Assembly: GCA_016192135.1 (NCBI GenBank)
Contig: JACPUR010000035.1
Span: forward strand, 95,056 to 159,055
Reading direction: 5' to 3'
Length of the DNA: 64,000 nt
From: Candidatus Tectimicrobiota bacterium
GTDB taxonomy: Bacteria; UBA8248
Below are positions 3,337-63,643 of this stretch, one piece after another (position 1 is the stretch's first letter; each line of letters opens with the position of its first letter). Below the pieces are notes generated by a model. It saw only the letters and a list, made by a program, of their open reading frames with translations, searched no databases and had not been told where the DNA came from. A program made the translations under genes and the position numbers.

Positions 3337-3432
3337 TCCCCTCACCCGGAGGGGAGGGCCAGGGTGGGGGAAGGATTTATAGCGCCGATAGATTCTCCCT
3401 CCCCCAGCCCCTTCCCGGAGGGAGGGGGAAAG
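3337..3432. repeat. GC-rich palindromic intergenic repeat, family 1 (CCCTCACCC...GGGAGGG type)
   Basis: CCCCTCACCCGGAGGGGAGGG ... CTCCCTCCCCCAGCCCCTTCCCGGAGGGAGGGGG. Same architecture as the copies at 45866, 49171, 54396, 56456 and 63529. Confidence 0.5.
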
Positions 3433-7071: not shown

Positions 7072-8871
7072 ATGGAGGCGATATCCGCCCCCGCGGGATG
7101 GCTGGCGGACCGGGCGGCCCAATGGAGAAACGAGCCCGGCAAGTTCGCCGCGATGGCGCTGACGGCCTCGTTCCTGGCCGCCCTCATCGCCTACCCCTTC
7201 CTGACCCTTTTCGTCATGAGCCTTCAGCACCCGGAGACGGGCGCCTGGACGATCTCAAGCTACGTCCGCATCTTCACCGAGGAGAGCTTCCGGGACGCGT
7301 TCATCCGCTCGATCTGGCTCAGCCTCATCGTCACCTTCTTCTCGCTCATTCTCGGCATCCCCATGGCCTTCGGGGTCTCGCGCACGCGGATGCCCTTCCG
7401 GGAGCTCGTGCGAAGCCTCACCGGCATCGCCTTCATCATCCCGAGCTTCATCGGGGCGGTGGGCTGGATCTTCCTGCTCGGGGAGAACCAGGGGGACATC
7501 AACCGCTTGGTGCGCTGGATCGTCAACCCCTTCCTGGCGGAGCCGATCGAGAGCGGCCCCTTCACGGTCTTCTCCTTCTGGGGTTTGGCCTTCGTCCTGG
7601 TCCTGCATTTTTTCCCGTTCGTCTTCTATTCCGTGAGCGCCTCGCTCGACAACATGGACCCCTCCTACGAGGAGGCGGGGAGCATGGTGGGGGCGGGGAG
7701 GCTCCTGACCGTGCTGCGGATCACCCTCCCCATGGCGGCCCCCGCCATCGTGTCGGGCGCCATCATGGTCTTCCTGGAGACGCTGGCGGCGTTCGGCGCC
7801 CCCCAGGTCATCGGCGTTCCCGCCCGGTTTCACGTTCTGACGACGCGCATCTACAACCTGTTCGAGCCGCCGCCGAACTTCGCCATGGCGACGGCGCTGG
7901 CCTCTCCGCTCATCGTCATCACGGCGGGGGCGCTGTGGCTTCAGCGGCGCATCCTGTCCCGGCGGCAGTACGTGACGGTGGGCGGCAAGGCCACCGCCCC
8001 CGCGCCCATGGACATCGGGCGGTGGCGCTACGTCCTGAGCGGGTTCTCCATGCTCGTGGTGTTCGTCTCGGTGGGGGCGCCGATGTACGCCATCTTCGCC
8101 ACCTCCGTGACGGAGGTGTGGGGGCGGCCGCTCTTCACCGGGCTCTTCCCGCCGGCCGCCGGCGGCTTCTCCTTGACGCACTACGAGCAGCTCTTCGACC
8201 CCGCCCTGGCCAACTGCGATCTTCCCGGCGGCTACATCGTCACCGAGGCCATATGCGCCGTCTACAACAGCATGTGGCTCTCGGCGGTGGCGGCCACCCT
8301 CATCCTCCTGCTGGCGGTGGTGTCGGCCTACATCGTCGAGCGCTCGGGAATCGATGGGAGGGGCGCGCTGACCGGCCTCATCATGATGACCTTCGCCTTC
8401 CCCTCCGTGGCGCTGGCCGTGGGGCTCTACGTGGGCTACCTGAGGCTCGAGTGGCTGCCCGTCTTCGGCACCATGATGATGTTCATCCTGGCCTACATCA
8501 CGCGCTACATCGCCTTCGCCTTCATTTTCGTGCGGAATACGATGAAGCAGGTGGGCCCCGAGATGGAGGAGGCGGGCCGCATGGTGGGGGCGGGGTGGAC
8601 GCGGACCACCTGGAGCATCTCGGTGCCCCTGCTCAAGAGCGGCCTGTGGATCGGCTGGACGCTCGTCTTCGCCGTCCTGCTCCGTGAGCTGCCCCTCACC
8701 ATCATGCTGAACGTCCAGGGGGCGCAGACCATGGCGGTGCGCATCCTGCTTTTCATCGAGGACGGCCTCCTCGAGCGCGCCGCCGCGATGTGCATCATCA
8801 TCATCGTGGCCTCGGTCGGGGCGACGTGGCTCGTCCGGAGGTTCGCCGGGAAATCCGTAATGGAGGTGTGA
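7072..8871 (+). CDS. ABC transporter permease with duplicated transmembrane domain (FbpB-like)
   Basis: Two BPD-type permease modules of approx 300 aa each. EAA-like loops. Many TM helices. Confidence 0.8.
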   Translation: MEAISAPAGWLADRAAQWRNEPGKFAAMALTASFLAALIAYPFLTLFVMSLQHPETGAWTISSYVRIFTEESFRDAFIRSIWLSLIVTFFSLILGIPMAFGVSRTRMPFRELVRSLTGIAFIIPSFIGAVGWIFLLGENQGDINRLVRWIVNPFLAEPIESGPFTVFSFWGLAFVLVLHFFPFVFYSVSASLDNMDPSYEEAGSMVGAGRLLTVLRITLPMAAPAIVSGAIMVFLETLAAFGAPQVIGVPARFHVLTTRIYNLFEPPPNFAMATALASPLIVITAGALWLQRRILSRRQYVTVGGKATAPAPMDIGRWRYVLSGFSMLVVFVSVGAPMYAIFATSVTEVWGRPLFTGLFPPAAGGFSLTHYEQLFDPALANCDLPGGYIVTEAICAVYNSMWLSAVAATLILLLAVVSAYIVERSGIDGRGALTGLIMMTFAFPSVALAVGLYVGYLRLEWLPVFGTMMMFILAYITRYIAFAFIFVRNTMKQVGPEMEEAGRMVGAGWTRTTWSISVPLLKSGLWIGWTLVFAVLLRELPLTIMLNVQGAQTMAVRILLFIEDGLLERAAAMCIIIIVASVGATWLVRRFAGKSVMEV

Positions 8872-9939: not shown

Positions 9940-10041
9940 GGAGGGACCGCTGGAAGGAAATGGGCTTCGCCGCCGCGCCGCTCTACCTGCACTTCAACCG
10001 GGCGCTGATTTCGGCGGGGAGGGTTTCGTAGGGATTCGCGT

Positions 10042-21787: not shown

Positions 21788-21845
21788 AATTCTTCTCCTT
21801 AAAATTGAACAGTGCGGATGTGACGGGGGGTCGCCTTTCATCCGC

Positions 21846-21873
21846 AGGGGCGGTTCGCGAACCGCCCCTGCGC
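21846..21873. repeat. REP family 2 unit (GCAGGGGCGGTTCGCGAACCGCCCCTGC)
   Basis: Perfect 28-nt palindrome. Same unit at 27311 and 29842. Confidence 0.5.
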
Positions 21874-27256: not shown

Positions 27257-27270
27257 GGGGGGAAAAATGT

Positions 27271-27340
27271 AGGGGCGACCGGCCGGTCGCCCCTACAGAC
27301 GTGAAGAGCCATTGATTTCCTGTAGGGGCGGTTCGTGAAC
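27271..27340. repeat. REP family 2 doublet (GTAGGGGCG...CGCCCCTAC x2)
   Basis: TAGGGGCGACCGGCCGGTCGCCCCTAC and GTAGGGGCGGTTCGTGAACCGCCCCTAC, between convergent genes. Confidence 0.55.
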
Positions 27341-27363
27341 CGCCCCTACTTCTTTCGCTTGCC

Positions 27364-29841: not shown

Positions 29842-29870
29842 CGCAGGGGCGGTTCGCGAACCGCCCCTCC
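29842..29870. repeat. REP family 2 unit inside the E1beta-E2 intercistronic region
   Basis: GCAGGGGCGGTTCGCGAACCGCCCCTCC. Confidence 0.5.
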
Positions 29871-45329: not shown

Positions 45330-45960
45330 TCCCACGGCCGGCCTCCTTGTCCCCCCCCTTTGGAACACCCCCCCTTGCCAAGGGGGGCAGGGGGGGTAGC
45401 AGGAGGGGGAGGTAAAGGGGGGCGAGCGGTTTACAGCCCCCGCCCCGGGGCGCCTTCCCCCTGCCCAATCCCGAATCTAGGCTCCACCGGGAGAAAGCCC
45501 GTTACCGCAAATCGCGCCAATTTCGCGCACCTTCATGCATGGGGGGTTTTTCGATACCCCCCATCGCGCCTTTGCCGGGTCCAGGCGGACCCGGCCCTTC
45601 CCCCAAGGGGGGCGGCGCATCCTCCGCCCCCTGTTTTCCCGGGTCCCCAAACCGGCCTGCCGGTTTGGGAGGAGGGGGGGAGGTATTGGGGGGGTGGTGC
45701 TGGGTGAAAAGGGATGCGCCCGGCCCCCGAATGACGGATAATGGAGTGCACAAAAGCTCAAAAAAATGCTCATTTTTTGCGTGAATTTGGGGGAAAACGG
45801 CGCGTTTTTTCCAAATTCGGCCCCGTTTTTGTGCCAGCGAGGCAGGGCATGGGCGCCCTACGTTTTTCCCTCTCCCTCCGGGAGAGGGTAGGGTGAGGGC
45901 GCGGACGGGGGCATTCCCTCACCCCGGCCCTCTCCCAAGGGGAGAGGGGGAAGGACCAAC
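45330..45960. repeat. non-coding region dense in hairpins, homopolymer C/G tracts and REP-family-1 units
   Basis: C8 and C7 runs at 45351-45374. G-run clusters at 45382-45422 and 45666-45704. Perfect hairpins (ATGGGGGG..CCCCCCAT, CCAAACCGG-CCTG-CCGGTTTGG). Family-1 unit at 45866-45952. No credible ORF. Confidence 0.45.
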
Positions 45961-46017: not shown

Positions 46018-47397
46018 ATGCCCGACGACCGCCCCTATCCCGCCACGGCCGAGCTCGCCCGCCGCATCGCCCAGGCAAGGGTGGAGGACGTGGACCCCCC
46101 CGCCCGGGCCAAGGCCCGCGAGGCCGTCGTGGACACCCTGGGCGTCGCCCTGGCCGGCTCGCGGGAGGAGTGCGCCCGCCTCGCCCGGGAGCTCGCCGCG
46201 CGCGAGGGGGGCGCCCCCAAGGCCGCGCTGTGGGGCGGGGGAGGCCGCACCAGCCTCACCTGGGCCGCCTTCGCGAACGGCACCGCCGGCCACGCCCTCG
46301 ACTTCGACGACACCGACTTCATCCTGCTCGGCCACCCGAGCGTGGTGCTCGCCCCCGCCCTCATCGCCCTGGCCGGGGAGCGCGGGAGGGACGGCGCCCA
46401 TCTCCTCGCCGCCTACGCCGTGGGCTTCGAGACCCTGCGCGCCCTGGGCCGGGCCCTCAACCCCCGGCACTACCGCCGGGGCTTCCACGCCACCGCCACC
46501 CTCGGGACGGTCGGGGCCGCCGCGGCCTGCGCCCACCTCCTGCGCCTCGGCGAGGAGCGGACGCGCCACGCCCTCTCCCTCGCCGCGAGCCAGGCCGCGG
46601 GCCTCGGGTGCAACTTCGGCACCATGACCAAGCCCTTCCACGCCGGCCAGGCCTCCCGCGCCGGGCTCTTGGCCGCCCTCCTGGCCGAGGCGGGCTTCAC
46701 CTCGGGCCCCGACGCCCTCGAGACCGGCTTCACCGCCGCCCTGGCCGCCGAGGGCATCGGGCCCGGCGTCGAGCGCTTCGCGGACTGGGAGGGCGCGCTG
46801 CGTTCCTGGGGCCCCCCCTGGGACATCGAGGGCGGCGTCAGCGTCAAGCTCCACCCCTGCTGCGCCATGACCCACACCGCCATCGACGCCATGCTCGCCC
46901 TGCGCGAGACCGAGGGCATCCGCCCCGGGGAGGTCGAGAGCCTGGGCGCCAAGTCCTCCGCCATGGCCCAGAAGATCCTGCGCTACTCCACGGCCTCGAA
47001 CGGCCTCGAGGGCAAGTTCTCCATGCAGTTCTGCCTCGCCTCCGCCCTGGCCGACGGCCGGGTCGGCCTCCCCCAGTTCGAGGACCAAGGCGTCCAAAGG
47101 CCCCTCGTCCAGGACCTCCAGCGGCGCGCGAGCTTCGGCCTCGACCCCGCCCTCGACCCCGAGAGCCACCGCGCCGAGGTCTGGGTGCGCCTCAAGGACG
47201 GCCGCGAGGCCCGCCGCGCCGAGACCCTCCCCCGGGGCCACGCCGAGCGCCCCGTCCCCGAGGGCGAGCTCCGCGCCAAATTCCTCGAATGCGCCGCCCT
47301 CGCCCTCCCGCCCCAAAAGGCCCAGGCCGCCTGGGACGCCTGGTGGGAGGTCGAGGGGGCGGGGGACGTGGGGAAGCTCGCGGAGATGCTGGGGTAG
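46018..47397 (+). CDS. MmgE/PrpD family protein (2-methylcitrate dehydratase family)
   Basis: ATG 46018 after GGAGG. PrpD-family N- and C-domains. Confidence 0.8.
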   Translation: MPDDRPYPATAELARRIAQARVEDVDPPARAKAREAVVDTLGVALAGSREECARLARELAAREGGAPKAALWGGGGRTSLTWAAFANGTAGHALDFDDTDFILLGHPSVVLAPALIALAGERGRDGAHLLAAYAVGFETLRALGRALNPRHYRRGFHATATLGTVGAAAACAHLLRLGEERTRHALSLAASQAAGLGCNFGTMTKPFHAGQASRAGLLAALLAEAGFTSGPDALETGFTAALAAEGIGPGVERFADWEGALRSWGPPWDIEGGVSVKLHPCCAMTHTAIDAMLALRETEGIRPGEVESLGAKSSAMAQKILRYSTASNGLEGKFSMQFCLASALADGRVGLPQFEDQGVQRPLVQDLQRRASFGLDPALDPESHRAEVWVRLKDGREARRAETLPRGHAERPVPEGELRAKFLECAALALPPQKAQAAWDAWWEVEGAGDVGKLAEMLG

Positions 47398-47407
47398 GGG
47401 CAGGGGG

Positions 47408-47998
47408 ATGCCATTCAACCCCGACGCCCGCCGCCGCCGGTCGGTGCGGTTGAAGGGATGGGATTACGCCTCGCGCGGGGCGTATTTCATCACGATATGC
47501 GTGCAAGGCCGCGAATGCCGTCTGGGGGAGATCGCGGGCGGGAAGATGCGATTGAGCGAAGCCGGCGCGATGGTCCACCGGACATGGGAGGAATTGCCCC
47601 TCCGGTTTCCGAACGTGGGATTGGATGCGTTCGTGGTGATGCCGAATCACCTTCATGGGATATTGGTTTTGAAAGTCCGTAGGGGCGAATCTCGTATTCG
47701 CCCCCTGGAAGCGGGCGGGTCTTCGCCTTTGCATGAGGGCGAACACAAGGTTCGCCCCTACGGAACGTTGCCGTGGACAATTGGCCGTATCGTGCAGGCG
47801 TTCAAGTCCACGGTGACGCGGCGCTACGCCGCTGACGTGAAAGAACAAGGCTGGCCGCCCTTCTCCGGCAGGTTCTGGCAGCGCAATTTCTACGAGCACA
47901 TCCTCCGGGACGAGGCGGAATGGGACCGCGCGCGGGAATACGTCCTGCACAATCCCCTGGAATGGGCGGAGGACGAGAACCACCCGCAAAATGTGTAG
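47408..47998 (+). mobile_element. REP-associated tyrosine transposase (RAYT, IS200/IS605 Y1 family) carrying an internal REP doublet
   Basis: (YFITICVQGREC), HUH motif (NHLHGIL), catalytic Tyr (WQRNFYEHILRDE). An extra approx 30 aa between HUH and the following helix is encoded by two REP-2 hairpins. Confidence 0.8.
47679..47769. repeat. REP family 2 doublet inside the RAYT ORF
   Basis: GTAGGGGCGAATCTCGTATTCGCCCC ... GGGCGAACACAAGGTTCGCCCCTAC in inverted orientation, in-frame, no stop codon. Confidence 0.55.
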
Positions 47999-48010
47999 AA
48001 TGGTTCGCGG

Positions 48011-48056
48011 GGGGATAGAATCCCCCCGCCGGGGGATGCTCCCCGTTTTTTCTTCG
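48011..48056 (+). terminator. hairpin(s) plus T-tract downstream of RAYT (possible terminator)
   Basis: CGGGGGGAT-AGA-ATCCCCCCG, then GGGGA-TGC-TCCCC followed by GTTTTTTCTTC. Confidence 0.35.
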
Positions 48057-48064
48057 AGGTCCGG

Positions 48065-49144
48065 ATGCGCGAGCGGGTGGTGGTGGCGATGAGCGGGGGG
48101 GTGGACAGCTCGGTGGCGGCCGCCCTGCTGGTGGAGCGGGGCTACGAGGTGGTGGGGGTGGGGCTGCGCCTGGCGGACCGGCTGCCGGGGGAGGCGGAGT
48201 CCTTCCACCGGGGCTGCTGCGCCCCGCGCGACCTGGCCGACGCGCGGGCGGTGGCGGCGCGGCTGGGCTTCCCCTTCTACGCGATGGACGCGCGGGAGGC
48301 CTTCCGGGGGGCGGTGGTGGAGGGCTTCGCGGAGGCCTACCTCCGGGGCCGCACCCCGAACCCCTGCGTGGACTGCAACCAGGAGGTGAAGTTCCACCAC
48401 CTGGCGGAGCGGGCGCGGGCGCTGGGGGCGGGGCGGCTGGCGACGGGCCACTACGCCCGGCGGGTCACGGCCGGGGGGCGGCTCACCCTGGCCCGGAGCG
48501 CGGACCGGGCGAAGGACCAGACGTATTTCCTCTTCGGGCTGACCCAGGCCCAGCTCGCCCTCGCGATGTTCCCGCTGGGGGATATGGAGAAGCGCCAGGT
48601 GCGGGAGGCGGCGCGGCGGCTGGGCCTCCCGAACGCGGAGAAGCCCGAGAGCCAGGAGATCTGCTTCGTGCCGGAGGGGGACTACCGGCGCTTCCTGGAC
48701 CGGGAGCGGCCGGGCTGGCGCCGGGCGGGGCGCATCGTGGACGGCGACGGGAACGTGCTCGGCGCGCACGAGGGCGTCGCCGAGTTCACGGTGGGCCAGC
48801 GGCGGGGGCTCGGGCTCGGGGGCGGGGAGCCGCGCTTCGTGGTGCGGCTCGATTCGGACACGGCGACGGTGGTGGCCGGGCGGCGGGAGGAGCTCCACCG
48901 GGAGCGCTTCCTCGTGGAGAGGGTGCGGTGGTCGCTGCCCATCGGGCGGGAGGGGCGGCGGCTCCTCGTCCAGGTGCGCCACCGGCAGCGGCCCGTCCCC
49001 TGCCTCGTGCGGCCCCGGCCGGGGCGGGCGGCCGAGGTCGTGCCCGAGGACCCTCCGGCCCTGGGCGCGGTGGCCCCGGGCCAGGCGGCCGTCTTCTACG
49101 AGGGGGAGGTGCTCCAGGGCGGGGGATGGGTGGCGGGGGAGTGA
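48065..49144 (+). CDS. mnmA: tRNA-specific 2-thiouridylase MnmA
   Basis: (VVVAMSGGVDSSVAA) PP-loop. Catalytic Cys motifs (PNPCVDCN). C-terminal domain. Confidence 0.85.
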   Translation: MRERVVVAMSGGVDSSVAAALLVERGYEVVGVGLRLADRLPGEAESFHRGCCAPRDLADARAVAARLGFPFYAMDAREAFRGAVVEGFAEAYLRGRTPNPCVDCNQEVKFHHLAERARALGAGRLATGHYARRVTAGGRLTLARSADRAKDQTYFLFGLTQAQLALAMFPLGDMEKRQVREAARRLGLPNAEKPESQEICFVPEGDYRRFLDRERPGWRRAGRIVDGDGNVLGAHEGVAEFTVGQRRGLGLGGGEPRFVVRLDSDTATVVAGRREELHRERFLVERVRWSLPIGREGRRLLVQVRHRQRPVPCLVRPRPGRAAEVVPEDPPALGAVAPGQAAVFYEGEVLQGGGWVAGE

Positions 49145-49170: not shown

Positions 49171-49258
49171 TTCCCTCCCCCTCCGGGGGAGGGTAGGGTG
49201 AGGGGAAAATCCACGGAGGTGCTTCCCTCACCCCAGCCCTCTCCCATAGGGAGAGGGA
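49171..49258. repeat. REP/MITE family 1 unit
   Basis: CCCTCCCCCTCCGGGGGAGGGTAGGGTGAGGGG ... CCCTCACCCCAGCCCTCTCCCATAGGGAGAGGGAG. Confidence 0.5.
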
Positions 49259-49358
49259 GAAAAGCGGGGCCGCGCGTATTGCCATATGCCCCCGCGGGCG
49301 GCGGGGCCGGGCGGGGGACCGAGGGTCCTCCCGCCGGCCGAGAGGGGAGAAAAACTTC

Positions 49359-54395: not shown

Positions 54396-54552
54396 TTTCC
54401 CTCACCCCCATCCCCTCTCCGCCCTCTCGAACCGGCAGGCCGGTTCGGGGACCCGAAAAGACGGGGAGAGGGGCGCCGATGCCGCAAAAGCCGATGCCCC
54501 GGATGAAGGGGCCGCTTCTCCCTCTCCCTCCGGGAGAGGGCCGGGGTGAGGG
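54396..54552. repeat. REP/MITE family 1 composite
   Basis: CCCTCACCCCCATCCCCTCTCC ... CGAACCGGCAGGCCGGTTCG ... CCCTCTCCCTCCGGGAGAGGGCCGGGGTGAGGGAG. Confidence 0.5.
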
Positions 54553-54708
54553 AGAGCCGGGGGCGGGGGCGCAATCGAAGGCATCGTTGTCTGTCTTGTA
54601 AGCTGACCGGCAATTGACAATTTTCCAATGGGTTGGTAGAAGACTCCCCTTTCCCGGGGACCCAGGACGGCCCGGGGCCAACGGCGCAACGGGCGGGAGA
54701 GCCTTGTT

Positions 54709-56376: not shown

Positions 56377-56455
56377 TGGTGGGCCGGCTTGCCCTTCACC
56401 CCGCGCCTCCTCTGCCGGCCCTTGTGCGTCAAGGAACCGTATGCCTAGCTGTTTT

Positions 56456-56552
56456 TCCCTCCCCCTCCGAGGGAGGGTAGGGAGGGGGGAAAAGGCTCGC
56501 GGCGGCTTTCATTCTCCCTCCCCCCTGCCCCCCTCTCGGAGGGAGGGGGGAA
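56456..56552. repeat. REP/MITE family 1 unit
   Basis: CCCTCCCCCTCCGAGGGAGGGTAGGGAGGGGGG ... CTCCCTCCCCCCTGCCCCCCTCTCGGAGGGAGGGGGG. Confidence 0.5.
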
Positions 56553-56639
56553 AACGCGGTTGCTCTCCTGGAGGGAACGCCGCGCTCGGAACGACGGCGG
56601 AATTGCCGGGTTGATCCGTTATCGGAGGGCTGAGCCGCT

Positions 56640-63386: not shown

Positions 63387-63528
63387 CGGGAGTCCTCCGA
63401 AATAAGATGCGGTACGGGCGCGAACGGCCCCAGCCGTAGCATCCGGGCGGGGAAAGATCAATCTTTAGGGCGGCAGAGGCCGCGCCCGTGTGCGGGAGCC
63501 CCTTCGCCTCCCGCCTCCGCTGGGACCT

Positions 63529-63643
63529 TCCCCTCACCCCGGCCCTCTCCCAGAGGGAGAGGGAGGAATGACCATTTCATACGCCGACAGCTTTGGCGGC
63601 CCCGGCGCCCCTCTCCCCTTGGGAGAGGGGAGGGGGTGAGGGA
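63529..63643. repeat. REP/MITE family 1 composite
   Basis: CCCCTCACCCCGGCCCTCTCCCAGAGGGAGAGGGAGG ... CCCCTCTCCCCTTGGGAGAGGGGAGGGGGTGAGGG. Confidence 0.5.

Follow-up and report, generated by a model that had tools for sequence, protein, structure and literature searches.

The DNA analysed here is a stretch of 64 kb, which we refer to as the window. It contains one RAYT gene, situated between an MmgE/PrpD gene and mnmA and carrying two inverted REP units within its reading frame (Table 1). A protein search matched the product of this gene at 100% identity to an entry named 'transposase' from a Candidatus Tectomicrobia MAG.

Table 1. Features of the RAYT gene, its internal REP units and its flanks (positions are those of the window; A1 is the alignment of homologues, AF2 the AlphaFold2 model).
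Position	Strand	Feature	Basis
47394..47401	+	GTAGGGGC head, possible relic of an upstream flanking REP; overlaps the MmgE/PrpD stop codon, 6 nt before the RAYT ATG	Homologues with an intact REP there
47395..48020	.	Foreign low-GC segment between MmgE/PrpD and mnmA (approximate)	GC contrast and empty relative
47408..47998	+	RAYT / TnpA_REP gene, subclass 2.4-like, intact, 196 aa	ORF list, NCBIfam, 4ER8 profile, AF2
47648..47656	+	HUH motif H81-L-H83, end of the strand before the insert	H81 and H83 invariant in A1; align with HMH of E. coli TnpA_REP (4ER8)
47672..47767	+	REP-encoded loop, residues 89-120 (KVRRGESRIRPLEAGGSSPLHEGEHKVRPYGT)	AF2 disorder; variable-length region of A1
47676..47764	.	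Whole doublet, one long REPIN-like hairpin on either strand	Folding z -6.0 to -6.9
47679..47704	+	REP unit 1: GTAG tag, 9-bp stem, 5-nt loop, gtaGGGGCGAATctcgtATTCGCCCC, read as RRGESRIRP	Hairpin and pattern search
47705..47735	+	Spacer between the REP units, 31 nt, partly self-pairing inside the long hairpin	Fold
47736..47761	-	REP unit 2, inverted, gtagGGGCGAACcttgtGTTCGCCC on the - strand (47737-47761); + strand reading EGEHKVRPY	Hairpin and pattern search
47876..47908	+	WQRNFYEHILR motif (W157-R167), predicted GTAG-tetranucleotide binding	Aligns with GTAG-contact residues of 4ER8
47939..47941	+	Y178 codon, predicted catalytic tyrosine (REYVLHNP)	Invariant in A1; aligns with catalytic Y115 of E. 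coli TnpA_REP
47995..47998	+	GTAG overlapping the RAYT stop codon	In L081, the closest homologue, it tags a flanking REP that is intact
48030..48055	+	Terminator-like hairpin and T-run downstream of RAYT	5' arm overlaps a stretch common with the relative's intergenic spacer

The RAYT protein and its embedded REP doublet

The family models recognised the protein at scores below their cutoffs. The alignment to a RAYT HMM that the earlier note had proposed (here NCBIfam NF047646, REP_Tyr_transpos) did give a match, split into two stretches, but its 59.2 bits (E 4e-16) remained under the cutoff of 80; similarly, Pfam Y1_Tnp reached 17 bits with a cutoff of 23. The insert that splits the match, together with the divergence of the subclass, plausibly explains these scores. 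In addition, profile alignment matched the protein to the E. coli TnpA_REP structure 4ER8, and its AlphaFold2 model was a Y1-transposase fold, with 2xma and 4er8 as the top Foldseek matches (E about 1.6e-6).

The HUH motif named in the earlier note was confirmed by these comparisons. The catalytic tyrosine, however, had been sought in WQRNFYEH, which is the predicted GTAG-binding motif; the predicted catalytic residue is Y178, whose counterpart Y115 is the catalytic Tyr of E. coli TnpA_REP (Messing 2012). Residues W157, Q158, Y162, E163, H164 and R167 aligned with W94, Q95, W99, E100, H101 and R104 of 4ER8, five of them being identical and W99 being replaced by Tyr (the GTAG contacts of TnpA_REP are listed in Quentin 2018, supplementary Fig S11). 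The presence of all family-invariant residues in the window protein follows by construction, because A1 includes that protein; independent matches to E. coli TnpA_REP exist for the two histidines of HUH, for Y178 and for the residues contacting GTAG. Judging from the HUH motif, the single Tyr in the C-terminal helix and the modelled fold, the protein belongs to the Y1 (HUH) superfamily, and it contains the predicted GTAG-binding motif that is specific to RAYTs. By its residues, the RAYT core (HUH, WQ..YEH..R and Y178) is complete, and the enzyme is predicted to be intact.

Between the HUH strand (residues 81-88 of the AF2 model) and the following helix (residues 125-147), the gene contains two hairpins that lie with their heads outward, in frame and free of stops. 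The central claim of the earlier note, a RAYT with an in-frame REP doublet, was thus borne out: two GTAG hairpins encode residues 89-120 with no stop. Both units consist of GTAG followed by a GGG...CCC stem of 8-9 bp and are of the GTAGGGGCGAA[TC] type. The pattern GGGGCGAA-N7-TTCGCCCC (at most two mismatches) occurred twice in the window, both times inside the RAYT gene, whereas shuffled sequences gave a mean of 0.20 occurrences and only 1 of 100 shuffles reached two. The folding energy of the segment 47676-47764 was -32.1 kcal/mol for the + strand (z -6.0) and -31.6 for the - strand (z -6.9) as DNA, and -59.3 kcal/mol (z -6.8) as RNA; none of the 200 shuffles matched this folding. A further copy of the internal GGGGCGAAT / GGGCGAAC type was not found elsewhere in the 64-kb window. 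Rfam, searched over the whole window at gathering thresholds, returned no family at the hairpins, and a permissive search of 47300-48100 gave only a chance match to isrK (E 0.7).

In the AF2 model, residues 89-124 were without secondary structure, and pLDDT was below 50 for residues 98-118. This disordered loop agrees with the second suggestion of the earlier note, a tolerated loop insertion. The C-terminus extends 8 residues past the helix 169-188, which is consistent with the lack of an extension domain. An assembly artefact as the origin of the doublet was rejected, because NCBI contains an identical protein and hundreds of assemblies made independently show the feature again.

A foreign gene with vestigial REP flanks

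The GC content of the RAYT gene was 61.8% (GC3 76%), compared with 77% (GC3 97-98%) in both neighbours. The left border of the foreign segment lies between 47363 and 47394 and the right border between 47999 and 48021. In a syntenic relative (L086) MmgE_PrpD and mnmA are separated by 133 bp and the RAYT is absent. The low GC content, taken together with the syntenic relative that lacks the gene, indicates that this RAYT copy is of foreign origin and that the Tectomicrobia lineage acquired it as a compact unit, about 0.63 kb long, which entered the MmgE/PrpD-mnmA spacer. The gene is probably read through from its upstream neighbour, that is, co-transcribed with it. Plasmids and phages were considered as vehicles for the family and rejected, as essentially no members were present there: among 72,556 plasmid records there were 5 hits, each on a non-mobilizable plasmid, and among 50,697 phage records there was 1. 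Together with the one copy in the 64 kb, this agrees with class 2 RAYTs being chromosomal genes of single copy that plasmids and phages seldom carry.

The REPtron arrangement, with cognate REPs flanking the gene, was not encountered in the window, where only relics remain, namely GTAGGGGC at 47394, one of eight occurrences of this sequence in the whole window, and GTAG at the stop codon. Cognate REPs flank the gene in the homologues L001, L002, L005, L012, L052, L073 and L081, and L001 keeps an intact REP at the upstream position (9966-9990 in that locus). The 'REP-associated' context is only vestigial here, because intact flanking REPs of the gene's own type are missing and no other copy is present in the 64 kb.

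The window also holds intergenic palindromes at 21845, 27269, 27322 and 29842. What they have in common with the internal units is no more than the head, GTAGGGGCG or, for two of the palindromes, GCAGGGGCG, and their stems (GGTTCG.CGAACC, ACCGGCCGGT) differ from the internal ones. Each is a single 'double-foot' palindrome, and those at 27269-27296 and 27322-27349 fit GT[AG]G...C[TC]AC. The intergenic and the internal REPs belong to the same GTAGGGGC-headed superfamily but are of different type. The statement that the same REP family recurs at 21846, 27271, 27311 and 29842 therefore had to be given up, as these double-foot elements have only the heads in common with the doublet; the position 27311 is also corrected to 27322. 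A second RAYT, cognate to the intergenic double-foot REPs, was sought in the window and not found.

The same cassette across the family

All 28 aligned homologues in A1, which come from several phyla (by record name Desulfobulbaceae, Nitrospirae, Zixibacteria, Latescibacteria, Planctomycetes, Nitrosomonas and others), have REP-encoded peptides at the same site, and their consensus reads ...HGIIVL..RRGExCxRP....GDHKDRPYGT... Moreover, REP-translation signatures were detected in 123 of 136 representatives of clusters defined at 50% identity. Among the family genes examined as DNA, 61 of 77 had at least one perfect GTAG hairpin at the insert site, and the density of such hairpins was 11.4 per kb in the insert segment, whereas the remainder of the gene had 0.47 per kb and the DNA outside it 0.26 per kb. 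This census replaced an earlier 11-mer test of the insert versus the rest of the gene against the locus flanks (13.6% vs 5.8%), which was dropped because it was confounded by duplicated-RAYT loci and high GC. Perfect hairpins persist among genes that are only 35-55% identical. The comparison of orthologues suggested in the earlier note thus had a divided outcome: the segment is native in the sense that it is present at the same site, but there, too, it consists of REP and not of unrelated sequence.

The residues encoded by the two arms of the units varied together. In the forward unit we counted E-S-x-I in 72 cases, E-P-x-V in 37 and D-P-C-D in 2, while E-S-x-V and E-P-x-I did not occur; in the reverse unit, D-H-K-D was found 58 times, E-H-K-V 41 times and E-Y-K-I 6 times. 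This covariation mirrors the pairing of the stems nearly perfectly. It was scored at the protein level, where it is unbiased; at the nucleotide level, the REP types have loops of different length, and preselecting perfect stems would be circular. The units were read as VGA... in 42 cases and as xRRG... in 13, and never in the frame in which the TAG of GTAG would act as a stop. The number of units was variable, with up to five recognised per gene, and both orientations were seen, although the outermost units were forward and then reverse in 81 of 117 proteins. In the closest homologue (L081, 63% identity) the REP type and the frame are both different, and yet the protein is also 196 aa long. 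Throughout the RRGE clade the frame and the insert boundaries are constant.

The internal REP type equals the flanking one in L001, L002, L005, L012, L052, L073 and L084. The same stem was present elsewhere in the locus for 32 genes, and in 26 of these it lay within 400 bp. Furthermore, proteins with a shared REP type were 53.9% identical outside the insert and the others 47.4% (permutation 0/2000). Homologues that appear 'empty' retain a TTACC relic, and three family members (L039, L076 and L068) have flanking REPs but no cassette. Some gene ends in the family have been invaded as well, which is seen as REP-encoded N- and C-terminal extensions.

Class assignment and competing explanations

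In-frame internal REPs are a published hallmark of TnpA_REP subclass 2.4 (Quentin, Siguier, Chandler and Fichant 2018, BMC Genomics 19:475), which corresponds to RAYT group 4 of Bertels, Gallie and Rainey (2017). The novelty of internal REPs was accordingly rejected, and the window gene is very likely an ordinary new member of this subclass, with a phenomenon that is already in the literature. According to Quentin et al. (2018), subclass 2.4 proteins have a mean length of 194 aa, the consensus NH[IFV]H, WQ and YIxNNP (MEME, Table 1 of that paper), and a median HuH-Y distance of 88. Their alphaB ends with an insertion of 8 aa, and a conserved C-terminal extension domain is lacking. Two kinds of REP go with them: 'canonical long' ones, whose stem foot consists of three G-C pairs, and 'double foot' ones (GT[AG]G...C[TC]AC). 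The window protein (196 aa) has NHLH, WQ and YVLHNP and an H83-Y178 distance of 95, which is near to this consensus but not letter-perfect. It resembles the subclass in length, in the NHxH, WQ and Y..NP motifs and, apparently, in the lack of a C-terminal extension domain. The likeness further includes the variable insertion of in-frame REPs between beta3 and alphaC, the GTAG tag with a GGG/CCC stem foot, 'double-foot' REPs in the same genome and a patchy spread across phyla. The differences are the slightly deviating motifs NHLH and YVLHNP, a host phylum (Tectomicrobia) not named in Quentin 2018, the lack of intact flanking REPs and the direct signs that the gene was recently acquired and entered a spacer between genes.

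This assignment also bears on two statements of the earlier note. The excess of about 30 aa is correct in relation to E. coli TnpA_REP (165 aa, 31 shorter) but disappears against the mean of the gene's own subclass. Likewise, the rule that RAYTs are flanked and not interrupted by their REPs applies to the classical RAYTs of E. coli and Pseudomonas and fails for subclass 2.4 (Quentin et al. 2018). With the E. coli enzyme (4ER8; subclass 2.2, group 2) the window protein shares the Y1 HUH fold, the aligned HUH, Tyr and GTAG-contact residues, and a substrate consisting of the GTAG tetranucleotide 5' of a GC-rich hairpin. The E. coli protein, in contrast, has about 27 residues from HUH to WQ and a C-terminal extension, its REP stems are bulged, and its gene has no internal REP and lies in a REPtron flanked by BIMEs. 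The TnpA proteins of IS200/IS605 (IS608, ISDra2) resemble the window protein in fold, chemistry and recognition of subterminal hairpins, but they are dimers of about 130-150 aa without an insert, and their hairpins flank the gene as LE/RE in multicopy elements.

As regards the doublet, the window has the two inverted REPs, with a short spacer and forming one long hairpin, by which a REPIN is recognised (Bertels and Rainey 2011), and in L005 and L084 the internal doublet equals external doublets in both REP types, with similar spacing. Unlike a typical REPIN, the window doublet is intragenic and translated, and the replicating-population property of REPINs is not seen within the 64 kb because the doublet is single-copy there. 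The intragenic GTAG/CGTC REPs and Rickettsia RPEs described by Di Nocera et al. (2013) are likewise in-frame palindromic repeats in coding genes, often dimers of 20-30 aa in presumably tolerant loops. Those insertions, however, are lineage-specific and affect unrelated genes and sites, whereas here the REP enzyme's own gene is concerned, at a site that is fixed clade-wide. The alignment of Di Nocera et al. (2013) contains a member of the present family, rca 2775, annotated from inside the insert and unnoticed there.

We consider it very likely that the window gene is an intact member of TnpA_REP 2.4 / group 4 whose cassette is a heads-out REPIN kept in frame, an element of the DNA level housed in a tolerated loop and acquired together with the gene as one unit. 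Genes of this clade typically contain at least one GTAG-tagged REP unit that keeps the frame and lies between beta3 (the HUH strand) and alphaC, and the peptide RRGESRIRP...GEHKVRPY would be a by-product tolerated as a disordered surface loop. To judge by the residues, the insert probably does not inactivate the enzyme. The cassette seems to move with the gene, to be of the same type as the flanking REPs in other genomes and to diversify alongside the protein, which suggests that one and the same process maintains the likeness of internal and external REPs. This homogenising process may be the action of the RAYT on hairpins in ssDNA, or gene conversion. The neutrality of the loop is an assumption, and the perfect hairpins that persist at 35-55% identity could equally mean selection on DNA or RNA structure.

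Among the alternatives, it is possible, if on the unlikely side, that no single ancestral cassette existed and that REPs inserted repeatedly and independently into the beta3-alphaC loop as the sole permissive site, the RAYT acting preferentially in cis and REPs attracting REPs. The copy number and orientation that vary even among close homologues, the different REP type and frame of the window gene and L081, and the invaded gene ends all fit such recurrent insertion. Against it stand the forward-then-reverse order of the outermost units (81/117 proteins), the constant frame and boundaries of the RRGE clade, the relics instead of clean empty sites in members that have no insert, and a hairpin density elsewhere in the gene (0.47 per kb) that is near background.

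An active role of the embedded REPIN, either as a master or seed copy that links substrate to transposase or as a cis-regulatory hairpin that limits RAYT expression via RAYT or RNases, appears to us rather improbable. It could explain why perfect GTAG hairpins occupy one site in 61/77 genes despite low protein identity, why the internal type follows both the external type and the protein phylogeny, and why the transferred window gene kept two perfect hairpins while its flanking REPs shrank to relics of 4-8 nt; the very stable RNA hairpin (-59.3 kcal/mol) is also in line with it. Bertels and Rainey argued that the establishment of a REPIN after transfer fails for want of a compatible RAYT, and an embedded copy would remove this obstacle. 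However, L039, L076 and L068 retain flanking REPs although their cassette has been lost, an external population of the internal type is lacking within the 64 kb, Quentin et al. (2018) judged the internal-REP region to be peripheral and of little impact, and a permissive loop that continues to receive REPs, or to undergo gene conversion, would show the same pattern without function. The farther-reaching proposal that the in-frame REPIN is a selected, heritable master copy, which lets 2.4 RAYTs cross phyla with a compatible REPIN, seeds or renews REPs and might autoregulate the gene, is doubtful, and we put it forward only tentatively. Under this master-copy proposal, the window gene would be caught after transfer and before expansion, with its foreign GC, the empty site in the relative, perfect hairpins and decayed or absent flanks.

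The view of the earlier note that a one-off REP insertion struck this genome's RAYT gene, as a self-targeting and possibly inactivating event, has become very improbable. The insert is indeed REP DNA and the window contains no external REPs of its type, but the cassette occurs at the same site in 28/28 homologues and across the family, the gene arrived already carrying it (foreign GC, empty site in the relative), and the catalytic and GTAG-binding residues are all present. Even harder to maintain is a native Arg/Gly/Pro-rich linker with incidental DNA palindromy: R116 and G119 do not vary in A1, and G93, E94, R98, P99, P117 and T120 hardly do, but it is the conserved GTAGGGGCG / CGCCCCTAC heads that encode these residues, heads which other subclades read in another frame (VGA...APT), identical nucleotide units exist outside genes in the flanks, and pairing covariation is near perfect in a loop predicted to be disordered.

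For annotation, the transposase gene of this clade directly reveals the cognate REP type, which is useful for REP annotation in MAGs. At the same time, gene callers and HMM cutoffs mishandle the genes of the clade, as seen from the sub-cutoff Pfam and NCBIfam scores and from open reading frames started inside the insert, such as rca 2775. The family offers thousands of natural variants for testing the role of the embedded REPIN as a seed copy or in autoregulation. According to reviews, there is no evidence for the movement of RAYT genes themselves. The locus described here provides a clean comparison between a filled and an empty site, in which a unit of about 0.63 kb brought the RAYT gene into a spacer between two genes, and this arrival bears on the question of whether RAYT genes ever move.

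The REP doublet within the RAYT gene and its protein product

Two GTAG-tagged hairpins, arranged heads-out with 31 nt between them, lie within the ORF of the REP-associated tyrosine transposase (RAYT) and encode its residues 89-120 in frame and without a stop, which bore out the in-frame REP doublet proposed in the earlier note. The window has two occurrences of this hairpin pattern, both in the RAYT gene, versus 0.20 expected, and the segment 47676-47764 folds into one long hairpin on either strand (DNA, -32.1 and -31.6 kcal/mol; RNA, -59.3 kcal/mol) with a folding z between -6.0 and -6.9, none of 200 shuffles being equally stable. Thus, the hairpin pair is not due to chance, and its structure marks it as a REP doublet of the REPIN (inverted doublet) kind.

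RAYT gene and repeat features of the window
Feature	Position	Strand	Remark
RAYT ORF, 196 aa	47408-47998	+	ORF confirmed in sequence
REP unit 1, GTAG-tagged hairpin gtaGGGGCGAATctcgtATTCGCCCC	47679-47704	+	within RAYT ORF
REP unit 2, GTAG-tagged hairpin gtagGGGCGAACcttgtGTTCGCCC	47737-47761	-	within RAYT ORF
GTAGGGGC head	47394-47401		overlaps stop codon of upstream gene
GTAG	47995-47998		overlaps RAYT stop codon
10-bp perfect hairpin GCGGGGGGAT-aga-ATCCCCCCGC	48007-48029		directly after RAYT stop, right insert border
Terminator-like hairpin	48030-48045		downstream of RAYT
Double-foot palindrome GTAG...CTAC	21845-21872		single, intergenic
Double-foot palindrome GTAG...CTAC	27269-27296		single, intergenic
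Double-foot palindrome GTAG...CTAC	27322-27349		single, intergenic
Double-foot palindrome GTAG...CTAC	29842-29869		single, intergenic
~100-nt nested palindrome	45855-45955		intergenic
~100-nt nested palindrome	49171-49265		intergenic
~100-nt nested palindrome	56450-56555		intergenic
Shorter copy of ~100-nt palindrome	3394-3431
Shorter copy of ~100-nt palindrome	54513-54571
Shorter copy of ~100-nt palindrome	63522-63583

The protein is identical to one annotated as 'transposase' in a Candidatus Tectomicrobia MAG. The NCBIfam REP-associated tyrosine transposase model matched it in two pieces (E 4e-16, 59 bits, cutoff 80), Pfam Y1_Tnp scored 17 bits only, and a profile of 29 homologues gave E. 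coli TnpA_REP (PDB 4ER8) as the sole solved relative. The AlphaFold2 model (mean pLDDT 82) has a Y1-transposase fold, with ISDra2 TnpA and 4ER8 as the best Foldseek matches. When aligned with 4ER8, Y178 (in REYVLHNP) corresponds to Y115, the catalytic tyrosine of the E. coli enzyme (Messing et al. 2012), and WQRNFYEHILR corresponds to W94, Q95, W99, E100, H101 and R104, which contact the GTAG tetranucleotide (Quentin et al. 2018, PMC6006769, supplementary Fig S11). Y178 is thereby the predicted catalytic residue, and the tyrosine assignment of the earlier note was not upheld. Its suggestion of a surface loop agreed with the model: residues 89-124, between the HUH-bearing strand (81-88) and helix 125-147, are devoid of secondary structure, with pLDDT falling below 50 at residues 98-118.

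The insert across the RAYT family

The idea of a singular, possibly inactivating self-insertion was not supported, as REP-encoded peptides (consensus RRGExCxRP ... GDHKDRPYGT) were found at the same site in all 28 aligned homologues (source names Desulfobulbaceae, Nitrospirae, Zixibacteria, Latescibacteria, Planctomycetes, Nitrosomonas, Kentron and others), with REP units in variable copy number and both orientations. The alternative of a native segment with unrelated nucleotide sequence stood in its first part only: the segment is present in orthologues, but its nucleotide sequence there is REP too. In the 117 close homologues whose motifs could be recognised, residues at paired stem positions covary almost perfectly. 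The forward units read G-E-S-x-I (72), G-E-P-x-V (37) or G-D-P-C-D (2), with no E-S-x-V or E-P-x-I combination among them, and the reverse units D-H-K-D (58), E-H-K-V (41) or E-Y-K-I (6); 81 of the 117 have a single forward unit and then a single reverse unit.

At the DNA level we surveyed 77 genes from the window and 80 related loci, which came from many phyla with a single locus for each GTDB species. In 61 of the 77 genes the insert segment carried one or more perfect GTAG-tagged hairpins (stem of at least 6 bp); hairpin density was 11.4 per kb there, compared with 0.47 per kb elsewhere in the gene and 0.26 per kb beyond it, in a census that covered loops of at most 10 nt and missed the ~100-nt palindromes of the window. 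The internal stems vary by gene (GGGCGAAC, GGGCAACC, GGGCAGGC, GGGCAGAC, GGGCGGTT, GGGCGAAA and others), nearly all beginning with GTAGGGGC, and hairpin-less homologues retain TTACC, a relic of the CCCCTAC tail. Forward units are read in two frames, GTA-GGG (42 times) and xGT-AGG (13 times), and the frame reading TAG as a stop was never used among the forward units of the examined genes. A full HMMER scan yielded 7,901 clusters (50% identity) at E <= 1e-30. Both the HUH and WQ motifs, 47-176 residues apart (median 86.5), are present in 136 of the 150 top-ranking cluster representatives, and 123 of these 136 bear REP-translation signatures. These comparisons show that the insert is a family trait of these RAYTs. 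One clade member, rca 2775 (Di Nocera et al. 2013, Additional file 5), has its annotated start within the REP insert (MVLARARRSRLGRPQGVAPT...), and its 'LPD VVH' was put in the HUH-motif column of their alignment, an example of the insert misleading gene calling and alignment.

The REPs inside the genes often match those outside. The unit gtagGGGCGAACctcgtGTTCGCCC of locus L001 is present in one copy inside the gene and in three copies directly beside it; matching internal and flanking REPs were also present in L005, L012, L052, L073 and L084, and in some of these loci external doublets pair the same two different REP types as the internal ones at similar spacing. For 32 genes the internal stem recurs elsewhere in the locus, in 26 of them within 400 bp. 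Identity outside the insert was 53.9% for genes sharing a REP type versus 47.4% otherwise (0 of 2000 permutations as extreme), and the closest homologue, L081 (63% identity), has a different REP type in a different frame at equal protein length. The internal/external match, this co-diversification and the swap of type and frame in L081 argue that the cassette is a DNA-level element changing jointly with the enzyme and the genome's REPs. It may be a neutral passenger kept by processes that homogenise REPs; a functional reading, as a selected seed or regulatory copy, we consider unlikely.

In L073 (9778-16467, a Deferrisomatales MAG) 26 copies of the REP gtagGGGCGACGcatgCGTCGCCC lie within less than 7 kb around and inside the RAYT gene, an extreme REPtron/BIME cluster. 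Paired RAYT genes of the family 1-3 kb apart, unexpected in a family described as single-copy, occur in L043 (8509-9051 and 9995-10537, near-identical) and, with different REP types, in L038 (9231-9773 and 9974-10495) and L044 (10064-10708 and 13051-13593).

According to Quentin, Siguier, Chandler and Fichant 2018 (PMC6006769), insertions of TnpA_REP subclass 2.4, which is Bertels' RAYT group 4, vary in length and sequence and form a peripheral extension in a homology model, probably with little impact on activity, and the REPs of the subclass are canonical long (GGG/CCC foot) or 'double foot'. The window RAYT resembles the subclass in insert position and REP types; its length (196 aa versus a mean of 194), HuH-Y distance (95 versus a median of 88) and NHLH, WQ and Y..NP motifs come close to those of the subclass. 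Matched against this description, it appears to be an ordinary, apparently intact and horizontally acquired member of subclass 2.4, of which such an insert is the hallmark. Internal REPs in this subclass are already published, and Di Nocera et al. 2013 listed REPs lying in frame within other genes; the additions here are quantitative only, namely the near-universality of the insert, the covariation in its hairpins, the frame rule, co-diversification and a pair of filled and empty sites.

Local history of the window copy and other repeats

The RAYT gene has 61.8% GC (GC3 76%), whereas both its neighbours, an MmgE/PrpD-family gene and mnmA, have about 77% (GC3 97-98%). A relative, L086 (MnmA 81% identical), shares this order of neighbours and has 133 bp and no RAYT between them. 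Because homology between the two ends near 47362 and restarts near 48021 (L086 3129-3263), about 0.63 kb, the RAYT ORF with minimal flanks, was inserted, and the gene was acquired horizontally. Plasmid and phage records contain almost no members of the family. The last ~12 codons of the MmgE/PrpD gene differ from those of L086, hence its 3' end appears to have been remodelled by the insertion. Since the 3' arm of the hairpin at the right insert border is common to the native spacer of the relative, the insertion may have brought in the 5' arm.

The RAYT gene of L081 has an intact flanking REP (7784-7810) that begins in its stop codon, and the GTAG tag of this REP is the counterpart of the one ending the window RAYT. 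Such overlap of the tag with the stop codon (xxG TAG) recurs in REPs adjoining RAYT genes. As no promoter-like site was found upstream of the window RAYT and a terminator-like hairpin follows it, the gene is likely transcribed by read-through from the upstream gene.

The intergenic REPs of the window, which the earlier note had assigned to the family of the internal doublet, turned out to be of double-foot form (GTAGGGGCGGTTCG.GAACCGCCCCTAC and GTAGGGGCGACCGGCCGGTCGCCCCTAC) with stems unlike those of the RAYT-internal units; two of the four have degenerate feet (GCAG or CTCC). In other genomes, REPs of the GGTTCGCGAACC (GGTTCG) type lie inside the genes of another RAYT branch (RRGGSRTAPT; L037, L038, L043 and L060), and no second RAYT, of that branch or otherwise, was found within the 64-kb window. 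The ~100-nt nested palindromes constitute a third intergenic repeat family, present on both sides of the MmgE/PrpD-RAYT-mnmA block. Their CCCTCTCCC...GGGAGAGGG arms enclose a core that bears a GTAG tag (GGGTAGGGTGAGGG...CCCTCACCCC) and has a long loop, and their RNA folding energies are -66 to -79 kcal/mol.
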